A stretch of 53,002 nucleotides of DNA from Kiritimatiellales bacterium (GTDB taxonomy: Bacteria; Verrucomicrobiota; Kiritimatiellia; UBA8416; JAIOPI01): assembly GCA_945949405.1 (NCBI GenBank), contig CAMFEP010000001.1, forward strand, positions 1 through 53,002, given 5' to 3'. How positions within the stretch are numbered: the first letter of the stretch is position 1; each line of letters starts with the position of its first letter. Below the pieces are notes generated by a model. It searched no databases, was not told where the DNA came from, and was given only the letters and a program-made list of their open reading frames with translations. Below, piece after piece: positions 25,171 to 31,773 of the stretch. Made by a program: the position numbers and the translations under genes.

Positions 25171-25387
25171 AGCGTATTCCTCCGTGCTTCACCTTTATGG
25201 GACGCCTGGCCTCGGTGCAAAACGTCCGCGCTTTCCGGCATTATCGAAAGAACCCGCGCGAAAACAAGCGAAAAATAAGGGGATTTTGTGGGGGGCATTC
25301 TCGCGGGAAGGGCGGCCGCCTGGCCGCCCAGGGCTGCGTGGCCGCAGCCCCTCCCGGGATACGGATACGAACGTGAGCCTGCGCCCA

Positions 25388-26134
25388 TCACCCCAGGCGC
25401 TGTTTGAGCGTGGCGAGGATCTTGGTATGAAGGGCCTGGGGCAGCGGGCTCTCGCCATGCTCGCGGATGGCGGCATGCAGGTTGCGGTCGTTGCAGACGA
25501 GCACGCCGGCCACGCCCGCGATGCGCAGGTCCGCGCCGGCCTCCGCTGCGAAGCAGAGTATCGGCTGCACGGCGACGGGTCCGCCGCAGGTCTCACGCAG
25601 AAGGGCGCGCAGGCCATCGGCGGCGCGGTTGACCTGGGCGAGCGGGGGGCGGTCGGGTTCCCGCCCGTTGGATAAAATCCGCTCGCCGTCGACGGTCACG
25701 CTGCCGGTCCAGTTTTTGGTTTCGACCACGAACACGCCGGTGGGGCCCACGACGACATGATCGAGGTCGCCATCGGCGCCGTCGTGGGCGCGGCCGGGCA
25801 AGCCGTGAAAAATTTCATACCCGGCGGGCAGCAGGCCCAGGATGCGGCCCACATATTCCTCGCCGCGCGCGCCCTTGATGAAGGAGGCGAGGCGCAGGCG
25901 GCTGGACTGCACGGCGAGGGCCAGGAGCAGGGCCAGCCCGATCAGTAGCCCGCCCACGGCGGGGAGCCCGAGCATCGGCCAGGGAAAGGCGGCGCGCAGG
26001 AGATAGCCGGCGGCGCCCACCACGCCCAACAACGGCAGGGCCACGCGCAGCAGTCCGCGCAGGCGTGGTTGTTCGCCCGGGCTGCCGTGAATGCGCGCGA
26101 AGGCATCCGGCGAAAGCGATGACGAGGGGCGCAT
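25388..26134 (-). CDS. Membrane-anchored NERD domain protein
   Basis: 248 aa. Two N-terminal hydrophobic spans, then KGARGEEYVGRILGLLPAGYEIFHGL...GDLDHVVVGPTGVFVVETKNWTG (NERD pattern). Confidence 0.75.
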   Translation of the reverse strand: MRPSSSLSPDAFARIHGSPGEQPRLRGLLRVALPLLGVVGAAGYLLRAAFPWPMLGLPAVGGLLIGLALLLALAVQSSRLRLASFIKGARGEEYVGRILGLLPAGYEIFHGLPGRAHDGADGDLDHVVVGPTGVFVVETKNWTGSVTVDGERILSNGREPDRPPLAQVNRAADGLRALLRETCGGPVAVQPILCFAAEAGADLRIAGVAGVLVCNDRNLHAAIREHGESPLPQALHTKILATLKQRLG

Positions 26135-26227
26135 GCAGGAAATAGATAAGCCAGCGCGGCGGGGCCTGTCGACCGTTTTCGGCTTTTACCCCGGGTAGGG
26201 CGCGGAGATGTTTTGCAAACCGGCGCC

Positions 26228-26263
26228 TAATCATAATCCTACGCGTAATCTTAATCTCGAGTT
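26228..26263. repeat. Left arm of NTAATC-hexamer inverted repeat flanking the four-helix-bundle gene
   Basis: TAATC-ATAATC-CTACGC-GTAATC-TTAATC-TCGAG. About 24 of 30 positions match the reverse complement of 26694-26731. Confidence 0.7.
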
Positions 26264-26658
26264 CCGCCGGCTTCTGCCCCGTACGTCGCCTCGTCCTCGT
26301 GAACGCGATTGTCCGATGTGCTTCGGATCAACCCGACAAGCATGGAGACGATCCGGGCCAGAATCTCCTTGCCCTGGTCAGCCTGCGCGAGGCGATTCTT
26401 CGCGGTTAGCACGTCCAGACACGCCGCACACTCCAGCGCAGAACCGCGGGCAATGTCGAAAAAACGACACCGGTCCGGGGCCGTATATTTTCCGTTCCCC
26501 TCCGCAATGTTGAGAGGAATAGAGGTCGAGGCCCGGTCCAGTTGGCCGTGGACCGCCAGATTCTTCGGGATGGTCTCCAGTATTGCGTCGGCCCAAGACA
26601 CAAACCGGATCGCGTCCTGATAGACATTCAGCTTCTCGTGATCGAAGGTTGTCTTCAT
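26251..26658 (-). CDS. Four-helix-bundle protein, 23S rRNA intervening-sequence (IVS) protein family
   Basis: 135 aa. LNVYQDAIRFVSWADAILETIPKN...QLDRASTSIPLNIAEGNGKYTAPDRCRFFDIARGSALECAACLDVL is the family pattern. Confidence 0.8.
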   Translation of the reverse strand: MKTTFDHEKLNVYQDAIRFVSWADAILETIPKNLAVHGQLDRASTSIPLNIAEGNGKYTAPDRCRFFDIARGSALECAACLDVLTAKNRLAQADQGKEILARIVSMLVGLIRSTSDNRVHEDEATYGAEAGGTRD

Positions 26659-26693
26659 GACCTACAGCGTAATGTGGCCACAGGAGATGCGGC

Positions 26694-26731
26694 AAGATTA
26701 TGATTACGATCAAGATTATGATTATGAATAA
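26694..26731. repeat. Right arm of the NTAATC-hexamer inverted repeat
   Basis: AAGATTATGATTACGATCAAGATTATGATTATGAATAA. Reverse complement is TTATTC-ATAATC-ATAATC-TTGATC-GTAATC-ATAATC-TT. Confidence 0.7.
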
Positions 26732-26775
26732 CCCAGCGGTCAGGGCTGGGCGTGGTATTCCGCCGACATGCCCAG

Positions 26776-26804
26776 TTGAACTGGCGGGTTCCGCGGGCTA
26801 GTAT
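26776..26804 (+). promoter_or_regulatory. Sigma70-like promoter candidate (TTGAAC-17-TAGTAT) placed for a leaderless transcript
   Basis: TTGAAC at 26776-26781, 17-nt spacer, TAGTAT at 26799-26804. ATG at 26811 is only 6 nt downstream and no Shine-Dalgarno sequence lies in between. Confidence 0.3.
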
Positions 26805-26810
26805 GCGCCC

Positions 26811-28223
26811 ATGCGAGAGCGGGACAACGCCGATGTGATGATGAGCCTGGTCGCGGTCGTGGTGGATGCGCTGGCGGTGTTTGGCGGGGTGATGCTGGCG
26901 GTCTGGATCCGGTTCAGCAGCGGTTGGATTCCGGTCGTCGTTCCGCCCGTGCGGGAGTATCTTCAGGAGTACGCTGCGTTCGGCGGCATGTTGACGCTGG
27001 GGGCACTGCTGGTCCTCCGCAATCAGGGGCTCTATGTGCGCCCCCAGACGGGCACGTTCGTGAACAGGATTCCGCGCCTCGTGAAGGCCGGCGTGTCCAG
27101 CATGCTGATCGGCGCGGTGCTGGCCTTCGCGCTGCAAAACGAAATCGACATTGCGCGCTGGGTGATGACGCTGGCCGGTGCGATGGTGCCGGTGCTGCTG
27201 CTAATCGAACGCTACATCCTCTTCCGCATCGAATGGAACCTCGCCCGTCACAGCCAGACGCGCAATCAGGTGCTGATTCTCGGCACGGACTCGGTGGCCG
27301 CACGCCTGAAGCGCACCTTTGCCCGGGAACATATGCTGCGCGCGCGCGTCATCGGCTTCCTGCGCACCACGGCAGGGGACGCGGACCCGGGCATTCCCGC
27401 GGCGGAAATTCTGGGGCATGTGGACGAACTGGAGGCCTTCATGGAGCGCCAGAACGTCCACCAGGTTATCCTCACCAGCGCCGGGCTCGGCACGGAACGC
27501 ATGCTCGACATTATGCTGCTATGCGAACAGCGGCTGGTCGAGTTCAACGTCGTGCCGGACCTGTTTCATTTGATGACCACGAGCATGGATGTGCAGTCGC
27601 TGGACGATATTCCGCTGCTCGGCGTGAGTTCCTGGCCGCTGGATCTTTTCTGGAACCGGCTCCTGAAGCGCATGGAGGACATCATGGGCGCGACGGTGGG
27701 GCTGATTGCGGCCGCGCCGATTATCATCTGGGCCGCGCTGAAAATCCGGCGGACCTCGCCCGGGCCCGTCTTCTACGCGCAAGAGCGCTGCGGCGAGCAC
27801 GGGAAGACCTTCACGATTTACAAACTGCGCACGATGCATGTGGACGCCGAGAAAAATTCCGGTCCGGTCTTTGCCGCGGCGGGCGACGCGCGGCGCACGG
27901 AGTTCGGCGCATACCTGCGCGAGCACAATCTCGACGAACTGCCGCAACTTTGGAACGTGCTCAAGGGCGACATGAGCCTGGTCGGTCCGCGCCCGGAGCG
28001 TCCGCACTTCGTGGAGCAATTCAAGACCGAGGTGTCGCGCTACATGTGGCGCCACGTTTCCAAGCCCGGCGTGACCGGCTGGGCGCAAATCAACGGCCTG
28101 CGCGGCGACACCAGCATCGCCGAGCGCGTCAAATACGACCTCTACTACCTCGAAAACTGGTCGCTCGCCTTCGACTTCAAGATTCTGGTCAAGACGCGGC
28201 TCGCGAGCAAGAATGCGTATTGA
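26811..28223 (+). CDS. Exopolysaccharide polyprenyl glycosylphosphotransferase (WcaJ/bacterial sugar transferase family)
   Basis: 470 aa, N-terminal TM spans. C-terminal PGPVFYAQERCGEHGKTFTIYKLRTM...LDELPQLWNVLKGDMSLVGPRPERP...KPGVTGWAQINGLRGDTS. Confidence 0.85.
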   Translation: MRERDNADVMMSLVAVVVDALAVFGGVMLAVWIRFSSGWIPVVVPPVREYLQEYAAFGGMLTLGALLVLRNQGLYVRPQTGTFVNRIPRLVKAGVSSMLIGAVLAFALQNEIDIARWVMTLAGAMVPVLLLIERYILFRIEWNLARHSQTRNQVLILGTDSVAARLKRTFAREHMLRARVIGFLRTTAGDADPGIPAAEILGHVDELEAFMERQNVHQVILTSAGLGTERMLDIMLLCEQRLVEFNVVPDLFHLMTTSMDVQSLDDIPLLGVSSWPLDLFWNRLLKRMEDIMGATVGLIAAAPIIIWAALKIRRTSPGPVFYAQERCGEHGKTFTIYKLRTMHVDAEKNSGPVFAAAGDARRTEFGAYLREHNLDELPQLWNVLKGDMSLVGPRPERPHFVEQFKTEVSRYMWRHVSKPGVTGWAQINGLRGDTSIAERVKYDLYYLENWSLAFDFKILVKTRLASKNAY

Positions 28224-28251
28224 TGAACGGTGGCGCGGCGCCACCGTTCAT
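28223..28251 (+). terminator. Perfect 14-bp palindrome directly after the stop codon (terminator-like hairpin or binding site)
   Basis: ATGAACGGTGGCGC-G-GCGCCACCGTTCAT, starting at the last base of the TGA stop. No U-run follows. Confidence 0.3.
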
Positions 28252-28327
28252 TCCCGGTTGCGGCGCGGAGGCCGGCAGGGTATGGTCTTGGGCCTTTGCG
28301 AATCAACGGAGGGAATGAGGGAGCGGG

Positions 28328-28798
28328 ATGACCGATGGCCTGAACAATCTGGCGACCAATGCGTGCTTCTGGTCGGCGGCATTTGCGTGGATCGGCGCGC
28401 AGTGCACGAAGATGTTGAGCAACTTCTATCGCACACGCCGCGTGGATTTTCACTATCTCGTCAGCACGGGGGGCATGCCGAGCGCGCACTCGGCGATGGT
28501 GACCGGGCTCGCGACCTCGATCGGGTTGACCGACGGATTTGGGTCCAGCGTGTTCGTGGTGGCGCTCGGGCTGGCCCTGATCGTGATGTTCGATGCCTCC
28601 ACCGTCCGCCGCGCCGCGGGGCTCCAGGCCAGCCTGCTGAACGAAATCGTTGATGAATTATTCAAGGAGCACCGCCTTTCCGAGCGCAAACTCAAGGAAC
28701 TGCTCGGGCATACCCGCCTCGAAGTTGGCATGGGCGCCATGATCGGGATCCTCGTGGCGATGCTTGTGGTGTCGGTTTCCTCGTATTCGCAATCGTAA
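28328..28798 (+). CDS. Divergent PAP2 family membrane protein (YuiD/DUF212-like)
   Basis: 156 aa. GGMPSAHSAMVTGLATSIGL...MFDASTVRRAAGLQA...LKELLGHTRLEV. Confidence 0.8.
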   Translation: MTDGLNNLATNACFWSAAFAWIGAQCTKMLSNFYRTRRVDFHYLVSTGGMPSAHSAMVTGLATSIGLTDGFGSSVFVVALGLALIVMFDASTVRRAAGLQASLLNEIVDELFKEHRLSERKLKELLGHTRLEVGMGAMIGILVAMLVVSVSSYSQS

Positions 28799-28858
28799 TC
28801 CTAATCGTAATTCATTCCGCCAGAGTCGATTACGATTAGGATTAGGATTACGATTGCG
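28788..28858. repeat. Empty NTAATC-hexamer hairpin (same repeat family as 26228/26694)
   Basis: Left arm CGCAATCGTAATCCTAATCGTAAT (28788-28811), loop TCATTCCGCCAGAGTCG, right arm ATTACGATTAGGATTAGGATTACGATTGCG (28829-28858). The arms are complementary except for one extra CCTAAT unit on the right. The left arm overlaps the last codons of the PAP2-like gene. Confidence 0.8.
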
Positions 28859-28907
28859 AGCGGGCAGGACAACCTGCGACCTGGTTCCATCCTGGACCGT
28901 CCGCACC

Positions 28908-28937
28908 TTGACACCGCCTGCCGCCGGGGGCTAGAGT
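28908..28937 (+). promoter_or_regulatory. Sigma70-like promoter candidate for ppdK (TTGACA-18-TAGAGT)
   Basis: TTGACA at 28908-28913, TAGAGT at 28932-28937, AGGAGG at 28971-28976, ATG at 28987. Confidence 0.4.
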
Positions 28938-28986
28938 CAGCCCCTTTGAACATTGGCCCCGCCGGGGCGCAGGAGGTCCGCACATC

Positions 28987-31773
28987 ATGGCCACACGCGC
29001 GAAAAAGCAGAAGCAGCAAAAGTACGTCTATCAATTCGGCGGCGCCCGCAGCGACGGCGACGGCAGCATGAAGCCGTTGCTTGGCGGCAAGGGTGCGAAC
29101 CTCGCGGAAATGGCGCGCATCGGCCTGCCCGTGCCCCCCGGCTTCACGATCACCACCGAAGTCTGCACCTATTATTACGCCAACAAGCGAACCTACCCCA
29201 AGGTGCTCGACGCGCAGTCCCGGGCCGGCATTGCCGCCATCGAAAAAATCATGGGCACGAAGTTTGGCGACACCAAGGCCCTCCCGCTGCTGGTCTCGGT
29301 CCGCTCCGGTGCGCGCGATTCGATGCCGGGCATGATGGACACGATTCTGAATCTCGGCCTCAACGATGACACGGTGCTGGCCCTCGCGGTCGCCACGAAG
29401 AACGAACGCTTCGCGTGGGACTGTTACCGACGCTTCATCCAGATGTATGGCGATGTGGTGATGGGCGTGCAGAAGCGTCCGAGCGAGGACCATGAGCCCT
29501 TCGAAGTGGTGATCCACACCCTCAAGCACGAGCGCTACCACACCGAGATCGACGATCCCAAGCTGACCGTCGAGGATCTCAAGGAGCTTGTCGTCCGCTT
29601 CAAGGCGCTGATTCACGAATACACGGGCAAGGAATTTGCGCAGGATCCGTGGAAGCAGCTCTGGGGTGCCGTCGGGGCCGTGTTCGGGTCGTGGATGAAC
29701 GACCGCGCCATGGTCTACCGCCGCAAGTACAACATTCCCAGCGAATGGGGCACCGCGGTCAACGTCCAGGCGATGGTCTATGGCAACACCGGCAGCCGTT
29801 CTGGCTCGGGCGTGGCCTTCACGCGCGACCCGGCCACCGGCGAAAAGATGTTCTATGGCGAGTTTTTGATCAACGCCCAGGGCGAAGACGTGGTGGCCGG
29901 CGTGCGCACGCCGGAGCCCGTGATTGAGCTCAAGAATCATCTGCCCGCCGCATACCACGAACTGGACAAGATCCGCACGACGCTCGAGCGCCACTTCCGG
30001 GACGTGCAGGATTTCGAATTCACGATCCAGGACGGCAAGGTCTTCATGCTCCAGACCCGCAACGGCAAGCGCACGGGCCTGGCGGCGGTGCGCTTCGCGA
30101 TCGAGATGGAGAAGGAAAAGCTCATCGACTGGAAGACGGCGATCCGCCGTGTGCCAGCTGACCAGCTCGACCAGGTGCTCGCGCCGGTGTTCGACCGCGC
30201 CGCGATGAAGGCCGCGCGTGTCATCGCCAAGGGCCTGCCCGCGGGTCCGGGCGCCGCTTCCGGCAAGATGTATCTCAATGCCGATCGCGCCGCGGCGGCG
30301 GCCGCGCGTGGCGAAAAGGTGCTGCTCGTACGCAACGAAACCTCGCCCGAGGATCTGCGCGGGATGATCGCCTCCGAGGGCATTCTCACGGCCAAGGGCG
30401 GCGTCAGCTCGCATGCCGCGCTTGTCGCGCGCCAGATGGGCAAGGTTTGCATTTGCGGCGCGGCCGCGATGCAGATCGATTATGCCGCCAAGACCATGAC
30501 CGTGGATGGCGCGACGTATCAGGAAGGGGATTTCCTCTCCATCAACGGCACCGCCGGCGATGTGTATGCGGGCAACATTCCGACCGCCGCCTCCGAGATC
30601 GTGCAGGTGCTGGTCGAGAAGTCGCTCGATCCGAAGGAGAGCCCGACCTACGGGATGTACGCGAAGCTGATGAGCTGGTGTGCCAAGGTCACGAAGCTGC
30701 AGGTGCGCACGAACGCCGACACGCCCGAGCAGACCGAGAACGCGCTCGCGTTCGGCGCCACGGGCATCGGGCTGACGCGCACGGAGCACATGTTCTTCGA
30801 GGGTAATCGTATCGATGCGATGCGCGAGATGATTCTCGCCGACAACGTGGTCGACCGCAAGACGGCGCTCGCCAAGCTGCTGCCCTATCAAAAGGCGGAC
30901 TTCGCGGGCATCTTCAAGGCGCTCAAGGGTTACCCGGCCACGATCCGCTTCCTCGATCCGCCGCTGCACGAATTCCTTCCGCATGAGGACGCCGCGCAGC
31001 AGGATCTGGCGACCAAGATGGGCGTGTCCGTGGCGAAGGTGAAGCAGCGGGTCAAGGAACTGCACGAATTCAATCCGATGCTGGGCTTCCGCGGCTGCCG
31101 GCTGGGCATCGTCTATTCGGAAATTTCCGAGATGCAGGCGCGCGCGGTGTTTGAAGCCGCCGCCGAGGTGCAAAAATCCGGCATCAAGGTCAAGCCCGAG
31201 GTCATGATCCCGCTCGTCGGTTTCAAGAAGGAGCTCGATCTGCAAGTGGAGGTTGTGCACCGCGTGGCGCACGCGGTGATGGTCGAGAAGAAGGTGAAGC
31301 TGCAGTACATGGTCGGCACGATGATTGAAGTGCCGCGCGGCGCGCTGACGGCGGATGAAATCGCCGCGACGGCCGAGTTCTTCAGCTTCGGCACGAACGA
31401 TCTCACGCAGACCTGCCTGGGCATGAGCCGCGACGATTCGAACTCATTCCTGCCGCCCTACGCGGAGCTGGAAATCGTGAAATCCAATCCCTTCGCCTCC
31501 ATTGACCAGGCCGGCGTGGGCCAGCTCATGCAGCTCGCGGTGGAAAAGGGCCGCGCGACCCGCCCGGACATCAAGCTGGGAATTTGCGGCGAGCACGGTG
31601 GCGATCCGGCCAGCGTGAGATTTTGCCACAAGCTCGGCCTGACGTATGTGAGCTGCTCGCCGTTCCGCGTGCCCGTGGCGCGCCTCGCCGCGGCCCAGGC
31701 CGCGCTCGAGGACGAAGCCGCCAAGAAGCCGGCGAAGAAGGCGGCTAAGGCCAAGAGCAAGAAAAAGAAGTAA
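28987..31773 (+). CDS. ppdK: Pyruvate, phosphate dikinase with Lys/Ala-rich C-terminal tail
   Basis: 928 aa. [46 protein letters not shown] (phosphohistidine region), [27 protein letters not shown]. Ends [21 protein letters not shown]. Confidence 0.95.

Follow-up and report, generated by a model that had tools for sequence, protein, structure and literature searches.

Genes of the S23p / 23S-IVS protein family are among the commoner small genes annotated as 'hypothetical' in many phyla and, to our knowledge, no function has been known for the family for about 30 years. Members are carried inside intervening sequences (IVSs) of 23S ribosomal RNA (rRNA), and IVSs bearing such an open reading frame (ORF) occur in Coxiella burnetii (helix 45), Leptospira, Brucella and Xanthomonas (PMC4990558). 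The Coxiella IVS is closed by a 28-bp terminal stem that RNase III cuts in mid-stem (Warrier et al. 2016, PMC4990558), and three to four tandem heptamers (GACAGAT), whose number varies between strains, precede the ATG of its S23p gene (PMC4990558). Gene-less arrays of 6–9-nt units, often in convergent pairs, have been described as GGGAATC in Xanthomonas and GGGGAYT in Nostoc (Rehm et al. 2015, PMC4692102), and paired sites of four to five heptamer or octamer units are known from Geobacter metallireducens (Aklujkar et al. 2009, PMC2700814); such arrays have been interpreted as G-quadruplex formers or as regulator sites (PMC4692102, PMC2700814). Term searches for the four-helix-bundle (S23p/IVS) family in these two array studies were negative, and a full-text literature search found neither repeat-armed cassettes of this family outside rRNA nor lineage-specific repeat words. 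Here we analysed a 53,002-nt stretch of a Kiritimatiellales bacterium (contig CAMFEP010000001.1 of assembly GCA_945949405.1; hereafter the window), in which a four-helix-bundle gene of this family is enclosed by two arms of inverted NTAATC hexamers.

The gene and its two arms constitute one genetic unit, a cassette that the window carries and that the corresponding spacer of two congeners lacks. The repeated unit of the arms is peculiar to each protein lineage across phyla, and the repeat-armed arrangement is the rule for the family in the window's order and occurs in other phyla too. The cassette fails the defining trait of an IVS, a location inside 23S rRNA, and shares every other testable anatomical feature of these elements. 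The IVS-like character noted in an initial annotation of this DNA was supported by the anatomy: an S23p ORF, a stem of ~30 bp, tandem repeats before the ATG and no obvious Shine-Dalgarno sequence. The window corresponds to contig C1 of a metagenome-assembled genome (MAG; G000) of 1.96 Mb in 163 contigs, which is 76% complete with 63% GC. The cassette, read in the orientation of its gene, is composed as follows.

26228–26257, minus strand: downstream arm, five hexamers, holding the last codon and the stop codon.
26251–26658, minus strand: four-helix-bundle gene, 135 aa (23S_rRNA_IVP / TIGR02436), assigned by profile matches.
26659–26694, minus strand: 36-nt spacer from the upstream arm to the ATG, evolving at a roughly neutral rate.
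26695–26730, minus strand: upstream arm, five to six GATTAN hexamers on the plus strand.
26731–26790, minus strand: outer ~60 nt beyond the upstream arm, to which nothing in the congeners' empty sites clearly corresponds.

A repeat search of the window identified the arms as two 30-nt segments (26228–26257 and 26695–26724), 437 nt apart and complementary at 25 of 30 positions (83%). Each contains five or six NTAATC hexamers, placed in inverted orientation around the gene as had been described. The left arm reads TAATC-A TAATC-C TACGC-G TAATC-T TAATC-T on the plus strand, and the right arm, as its reverse complement, reads (TATTC)-ATAATC-ATAATC-TTGATC-GTAATC-ATAATC. With at most one mismatch allowed, TAATCNTAATC occurred 14 times in the window against 0.37 expected, and all 14 matches were confined to the cassette locus and to positions 28790–28856. 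Because, at the 63% GC of this genome, RNAduplex applied to long flanks gave no separation between the paralogues and random controls, it was replaced by an inverted-repeat score, in which the upstream flank is locally aligned with the reverse complement of the downstream flank. The window gene scored 17.5, a value reached by 0.1% of random segments spaced by 400 bp (n = 3000; mean 8.2, 99.9th percentile 14.5).

The 531-nt minus-strand RNA is predicted to fold such that the arm stem closes the cassette in both the minimum free energy and the centroid structures (z −3.9; 0 of 100 shuffled sequences were as stable), with eight base pairs added beyond the arms. The long stem with the ORF in its loop that had been proposed is thus also the structure favoured by these models. 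The stop codon of the gene (GAT TAA, 26251–26256) is situated within the first unit of the downstream arm, a detail that went unremarked in the initial annotation. The upstream arm is separated from the ATG by 36 nt without a clear Shine-Dalgarno sequence. The segment 26731–26790 may be part of the insert, as an outer stem or a promoter, or may represent a diverged target duplicate; the boundary of the cassette is uncertain on this side. No Rfam family matched in 25300–29000 beyond one match at chance level. We also considered the arms as a promoter and terminator. On the gene strand, the upstream arm includes CATAAT, a weak −10-like element, and a promoter-like match (9/12) was identified at 26743–26715 on the minus strand. 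This was rejected as a general explanation, since a terminator-like tail is missing, the −10 element is weak and the words of other lineages are quite different.

The protein matched PF05635 with 71.5 bits against a cut-off of 33.8 (residues 8–107, E 8.2e-20) and TIGR02436 with 67.3 bits against a cut-off of 24 (E 1.2e-18), which confirmed its assignment as a four-helix-bundle protein of the 23S rRNA IVS type. Its nearest structurally solved relative is XCC0516 (PDB 2GSC; E 3.7e-10). The PDB entry contains five chains, and XCC0516 has been described as a homopentamer (PMC4990558). Comparison of the window protein with two cassette copies in a genome of the same genus (G001) gave dN/dS values of 0.115 (dS 0.78) and 0.058, and the protein is under purifying selection.

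The cassette occupies a spacer between two protein-coding genes, in agreement with the ordinary intergenic position previously assigned to it.

25388–26134, minus strand: gene for a NERD-domain protein, downstream of the cassette and on the same strand (PF08378, E 2e-19).
26811–28223, plus strand: divergent gene for a sugar transferase (Bac_transf; PF02397, E 4.6e-66).

Orthologues of the sugar transferase were found in 40 of 40 relatives, and the order protease – HU – NERD – sugar transferase is kept in the two same-genus genomes G001 and G002. The spacer between the NERD and transferase genes measures 676 bp in the window versus 89 bp in G002 and 165 bp in G001, and the hexamer hairpin was not found in this spacer in either of them. 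G001 carries two cassettes of the same lineage at other sites, on contigs C12 and C11, with protein identities of 76% and 86%. On C12 the cassette is intact and has (NTAATC)3 in its upstream arm and (GATTAN)5 in its downstream arm, and on C11 an insertion sequence of 1.15 kb interrupts it. A three-way alignment placed the limits of homology at the outer edges of the arms, as it begins with the upstream arm and ends with the downstream arm. The downstream arms of the window and C11 copies have the irregular unit CGCGTAG in common. Hand counts on the alignment of these two copies gave an identity of ~90% for the arms and ~50% for the spacer before the ATG (32–36 nt), and 51% of synonymous sites were identical; the arms are therefore constrained in sequence and not only in their ability to pair. 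The cassette behaves as a unit that is gained or lost, which agrees with the possible mobility raised in the initial annotation.

The insertion sequence in the C11 copy (about 2563–3729 of L084) cuts the gene at codon ~113, has GTGCTGT...ACAGCAC ends and is accompanied by a CTAGT duplication. A further diverged four-helix-bundle ORF follows it at about 4034–4296 of L084. At the window locus, both cassette flanks align weakly and with gaps to the same ~40 nt of the empty G001 spacer, which could reflect a diverged duplication or chance, and no direct repeats were seen at the G001 cassette copies. Within the cassette, no ORF other than the four-helix-bundle gene had a family match; no search for a cognate transposase was made across the whole genome.

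We identified nine PF05635 genes in G000, and all nine are located between inverted arrays of short tandem repeats. The unit differs from gene to gene and includes GTCCTACA, GTGCTGG, GTGTCGGA, CCCACAT, CCTGAAA and CGGAAT; the C36-type four-helix-bundle gene, which belongs to a different lineage, is flanked by GGACTGTA units. Flank scores of the nine paralogues ranged from 13.5 to 34, each within the top 0.03–0.4% of random controls (n = 3000). Flanking repeats accompany every paralogue and the NTAATC repeats are not unique to the window site, with about 18 such loci in the genome, and on these two counts the cassette interpretation in the initial annotation was not refuted.

Of 41 related genomes, which cover 34 genera of one order, 39 contain the gene family, with 1–18 copies each. 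For 56 fetched homologues with both flanks, taken from 26 of the related genomes, the inverted-repeat score exceeded the 99th percentile of mismatched-flank controls at 38 loci and the 95th percentile at 45. Tandem Repeats Finder (TRF) detected an array with a period of 5–10 in 123 of 148 flanks, mostly with a period of 7 or 8. The same arm design surrounds 8 of 10 plasmid-borne homologues from Cyanobacteria, Gemmatimonadota and Alphaproteobacteria (those of Aulosira, Picosynechococcus, Stanieria, Geminocystis, Leptolyngbya, Anabaena, Gemmatirosa and Azospirillum). The homologue on a Nostoc plasmid has no matching upstream arm and lies directly downstream of an ISL3 transposase gene. The Pseudanabaena galeata plasmid homologue (L074, between cas6 and cas4) is an exception in that its arrays are direct rather than inverted, with about 17 copies of (AAAGCT)n upstream and (AAAGCC)n downstream. 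Several of the plasmid-borne homologues are located within cas operons, a setting in which the four-helix-bundle gene has been noted before (PMC3936711).

Two further observations concern these relatives. Back-to-back pairs of four-helix-bundle domains, 44–51% identical to the window protein, occur in single frames of 247–337 aa (G019:C16, G027:C25, G020:C665, G033:C141, G040:C297 and G037:C4); they could represent fusions of tandem domains, or neighbouring cassettes that lack a stop codon between them. Also, many contigs of related MAGs stop within a few hundred bases of the gene (L018, L021, L022, L026, L032, L045, L051 and L063), a pattern suggesting that short-read assembly is interrupted by the repeat arms and that MAG copy numbers are consequently probable underestimates.

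The word repeated in the arms follows the protein. Across 52 loci, protein similarity correlated with the sharing of 6-mers between upstream arms (Mantel r = 0.40, 0 of 2000 permutations). Where the normalised protein score of a pair exceeded 0.5, 15% of 6-mers were shared, compared with 1–2% for other pairs, and this sharing is strand-specific, as a reverse-complement control gave ~0.5%. A scan of one genome per species identified at least 548 relatives of the window protein in Verrucomicrobiota, Planctomycetota, Lentisphaerae, Kiritimatiellae, SAR324, Desulfobacterales, Binatia and other groups. In a set of 81 loci, comprising 80 fetched relatives and the window itself, at least three in-register NTNNTC units were present upstream of the gene in 64, downstream in 58 and on both sides in 52, against 35 of 400 background segments. 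Five was the commonest number of units per arm (34 of the 81 upstream arms). Whereas positions 2, 5 and 6 of the unit were fixed by the search pattern, position 3 was A in 73% and position 4 in 62% of units, and position 1 was the most variable (52% T). The units of distant relatives drift toward TGCTC, TACTC or TTCTC. The last two codons correspond to GA(T/G/A) TA(A/G) in 36 of 75 loci, such that the arm provides the stop codon. The gene is flipped relative to its arms in six loci (four labelled Pirellulaceae or Planctomycetaceae and two of Verrucomicrobiales type), an arrangement that recombination between inverted arms would produce. The TRF copy number stayed at ~4.3 across periods 6–9 while arm length rose from 25 to 42 nt.

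The window hexamer also occurs without a gene, 2.1 kb from the cassette.

28784–28860, no strand assigned: gene-less hairpin of the window hexamer, composed of TCGCAATCGTAATCCTAATCGTAAT, a 17-nt loop and ATTACGATTAGGATTAGGATTACGATTGCGA.

This hairpin is predicted to fold with −46.4 kcal/mol (z −9.0). The TAA stop codon of the adjoining DUF212 gene (28328–28798) comes from the first unit of the hairpin, and the hairpin therefore abuts, or has replaced, the native end of this gene. The DUF212 gene of G001 is not followed by a hairpin, and in G002 none was seen in the 39 nt left before the contig ends. We considered whether the hairpin is a remnant of internal deletion of a cassette, as its loop contains TTCCGCC, which is also found beside the downstream arm of the cassette; this candidate was rejected because the gene-less hairpins on C105 and C38 do not contain this sequence.

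A TRF-based scan of G000 identified 58 inverted pairs of tandem arrays. Those with loops of 397–437 nt contain four-helix-bundle genes, and most of the others have loops of 0–110 nt and no gene. At least six triple-unit NTAATC hits were present in 9 of 9 genomes that encode a relative of the window protein with at least 63% identity, compared with 14 of 32 other genomes (Fisher p = 0.0025). A different gene was found in a hairpin of the same kind, at C78:1316–1781, where a small GxxExxY / PDDEXK_3 gene of the nuclease fold (TIGR04256, E 1e-39) lies between arms of 10-mer units, CCGCGAATGAACGCGAATGGACGCGAA and CATTCGCGTCCATTGGCGTTCATTCGCGG. Gene-less hairpins of this unit occupy six or more other sites, and a fragment of the gene was detected at C122:3553–3660. 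GxxExxY is thus a second cargo family of tandem-repeat hairpins.

We also observed a composite repeat, in which an NTAATC array is followed by ~25 conserved nt (cgcggcctgtcgcccacaacccaat), a CGGGGT/CGGAAT hexamer hairpin and then gcacgcatttgcgt. It occurs in G000 at C15:3247, C38:7709, C158:586, C30:10286 (reverse), C17:15345 and C28:17069, and its CGGAAT corresponds to the unit flanking the four-helix-bundle gene on C150.

Based on comparison with rRNA IVSs, we hypothesise that the transcribed arms would base-pair to form an interrupted stem of ~30 bp that loops out the ORF, and that RNase III would cut this stem and free the ORF RNA from the host transcript. Excised in this manner, the insert would be expected to do little harm wherever it had landed. 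An RNase III gene is present in G000 (C58:2631–3005). Neighbouring genes were co-oriented with the cassette gene in 47 of 63 and 47 of 64 cases (p about 1e-4) according to rough, frame-based orientation calls, which miscalled the NERD neighbour at the window locus; this proportion, roughly three quarters, is compatible with transcription of the cassette together with host genes. The protein, probably a pentamer like XCC0516, would recognise the repeated units of the arms around its gene, in either DNA or RNA form. Such recognition would account for the conservation of the word with the protein, for the single free position in each unit and for a number of units (four to five) that is steadier than the length of the arm. 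Without need of a cassette-encoded enzyme, spread would most plausibly rely on recombination by the host, or on gene conversion, between hairpins with a common word, and the gene-less hairpins of this word could be landing sites or stripped-down derivatives. As a tentative model, the pentamer may read its own arms with about one unit per subunit, so that protein lineage, word and gene-less hairpins would form a matched system. This system could be either an enzyme-less mobile element, with the hairpins mobilised in trans, or a dispersed RNA/DNA-binding regulon, and the rRNA IVS would represent one special landing site within a far wider class of elements.

Several observations weigh against this model. 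Transcription of the cassette, formation of the stem and its cleavage by RNase III are all proposed by analogy, and the stem contains five mismatches in its 30 positions, of which two fall on the free N. A transposase was not found in the cassette, nor a reverse transcriptase in the genome, nor a convincing target-site duplication. The filled and empty sites were compared between genomes that are only ~70–75% identical in the neighbouring proteins, so loss of the cassette in the relatives is possible. The constancy of unit number derives mostly from periods 7 and 8, with periods 6 and 9 contributing four and three flanks, respectively. Two genomes are rich in arrays although no close relative of the window protein was found in them (G026 with 170 hits and G038 with 73). 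Gene-less NTAATC arrays also far outnumber the genes, an excess that fits arms living independently of the gene, and the GxxExxY cargo in a hairpin of the same kind weakens a protein-specific interpretation.

In a rival reading, the hairpins came first, as independent small genome-wide repeats resembling REP, MITE or terminator elements (repetitive extragenic palindromes and miniature inverted-repeat transposable elements, respectively, for the former two), and the gene is a passenger that settled in their loops or was copied by homologous recombination between hairpins of the same word, without the protein reading the arms. The predominance of gene-less 0–110-nt loops among the 58 inverted pairs, the number of NTAATC loci in G000, the two array-rich genomes, the unrelated GxxExxY cargo with its common gene-less copies and the published gene-less paired arrays of Xanthomonas and Geobacter (PMC4692102, PMC2700814) are all in its favour, and copying by homology between hairpins would equally yield the observed correlation between protein and word. 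We nevertheless regard it as rather doubtful, because the empty sites of the congeners are entirely devoid of a hairpin, the homology between copies at different sites is bounded by the arms, the same word accompanies the window protein lineage across several phyla and arrays are present in all nine genomes with a relative of at least 63% identity, against 14 of 32 others. Alternatively, the protein could be a regulator that binds the NTAATC arrays, in which case the roughly 18 loci would be its regulon and its own arms would serve autoregulation rather than mobility or RNA excision. Arrays do abut the starts or stops of other genes, as at C28:10594, 17 nt before an ATG, and at the DUF212 gene, whose stop codon is inside an array; the unit sequence is conserved with the protein, protein and arrays co-occur, and the paired 4–5-unit arrays of Geobacter were proposed by its annotators to be the sites of an unknown global regulator (PMC2700814). 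However, presence or absence of the cassette and its differing sites are atypical for a housekeeping regulator, a single genome can contain as many as 18 paralogues whose words differ, and arrays occur without the protein. With the inverted symmetry around the whole gene and the rRNA IVS cases left unexplained as well, we consider a purely regulatory role improbable.

A role in a diversity-generating retroelement (DGR) was weighed in the same manner, as the PF05635 family resembles Avd and is common beside DGR reverse transcriptases (PMC10053308). According to this explanation, the window gene would be an Avd-type accessory gene or the remnant of such an element. No match to RVT_1 was obtained in G000 or in 16 of the 41 related genomes, and the latter include near-complete genomes with 7–10 copies of the family (G039, which is 97% complete with 10 copies, G012 and G021). 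Based on this lack of reverse transcriptase, retro-mobility and a DGR role are unlikely for the family. For the window gene, whose neighbours encode a NERD protein and a sugar transferase and whose region contains no template/variable repeat pair among its repeats, the DGR explanation was rejected as very hard to credit.

The window locus and its relatives show an S23p-family gene that travels with lineage-specific arms as a unit, lands between ordinary genes as well as in rRNA and is conserved in both protein and arms. The arms offer a testable lead on the function of four-helix-bundle proteins and turn the vague idea of a 'selfish IVS' into concrete questions. They also provide a possible origin for the puzzling 6–9-nt intergenic arrays of Xanthomonas, Nostoc and Geobacter. 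For genome annotation, such cassettes account for small genes wedged in operons and for contig breaks at their flanks.

Comparison with other known systems places the cassette among several classes of element. The solved relatives Avd (PDB 4DWL) and XCC0516 (PDB 2GSC) share a homologous four-helix-bundle fold and form a pentameric ring. Avd acts in a nucleic-acid complex with RNA and reverse transcriptase. Unlike Avd in its DGR, the window gene stands alone within its own repeat arms, with neither a reverse transcriptase nor template and variable repeats. The class of elements to which the cassette belongs resembles MITEs and REP elements with their bacterial interspersed mosaic elements (BIMEs) in being small, multicopy and intergenic, with terminal inverted symmetry and with gene-less forms being commoner. 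However, the cassette arms are tandem arrays of a short word, whereas MITE and REP/BIME ends are unique terminal inverted repeats, and the gene-carrying cassette differs from MITE and REP systems in lacking a transposase or a REP-associated tyrosine transposase (RAYT) as well as a clear target-site duplication. The arrays of Xanthomonas, Nostoc and Geobacter are of the same kind as the cassette arms, with four to five tandem units, an intergenic position and frequent inverted pairing that can form hairpins, and they match the hairpin at 28784–28860 and about 50 others in G000. The NTAATC word is A/T-rich and cannot form G-quadruplexes, unlike what was proposed for the published arrays.

The closest likeness is to the 23S rRNA IVS. 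In both, an S23p-family ORF is enclosed by a terminal stem of about 28–30 bp, tandem repeats of 6–8 nt directly precede the ATG and the Shine-Dalgarno sequence is poor or absent. A further likeness is that IVSs have long been suspected of being selfish or mobile although no mobility enzyme is known for them. IVSs are located within 23S rRNA, in helix 25 or 45, whereas the window cassette is situated between the NERD and sugar transferase genes; the G000 MAG contains no 23S gene, and a search covering 20 relatives yielded 23S genes of ordinary length (2927–2989 nt in six of them), without an ORF-sized insert. The Coxiella ORF has been reported to be decaying (PMC4990558), whereas the window ORF is clearly under purifying selection. 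Cleavage by RNase III has been shown for IVSs, and the window cassette is likened to them by its anatomy alone. Based on this shared anatomy, the cassette is probably the equivalent, outside rRNA, of the 23S intervening sequences that bear an ORF.

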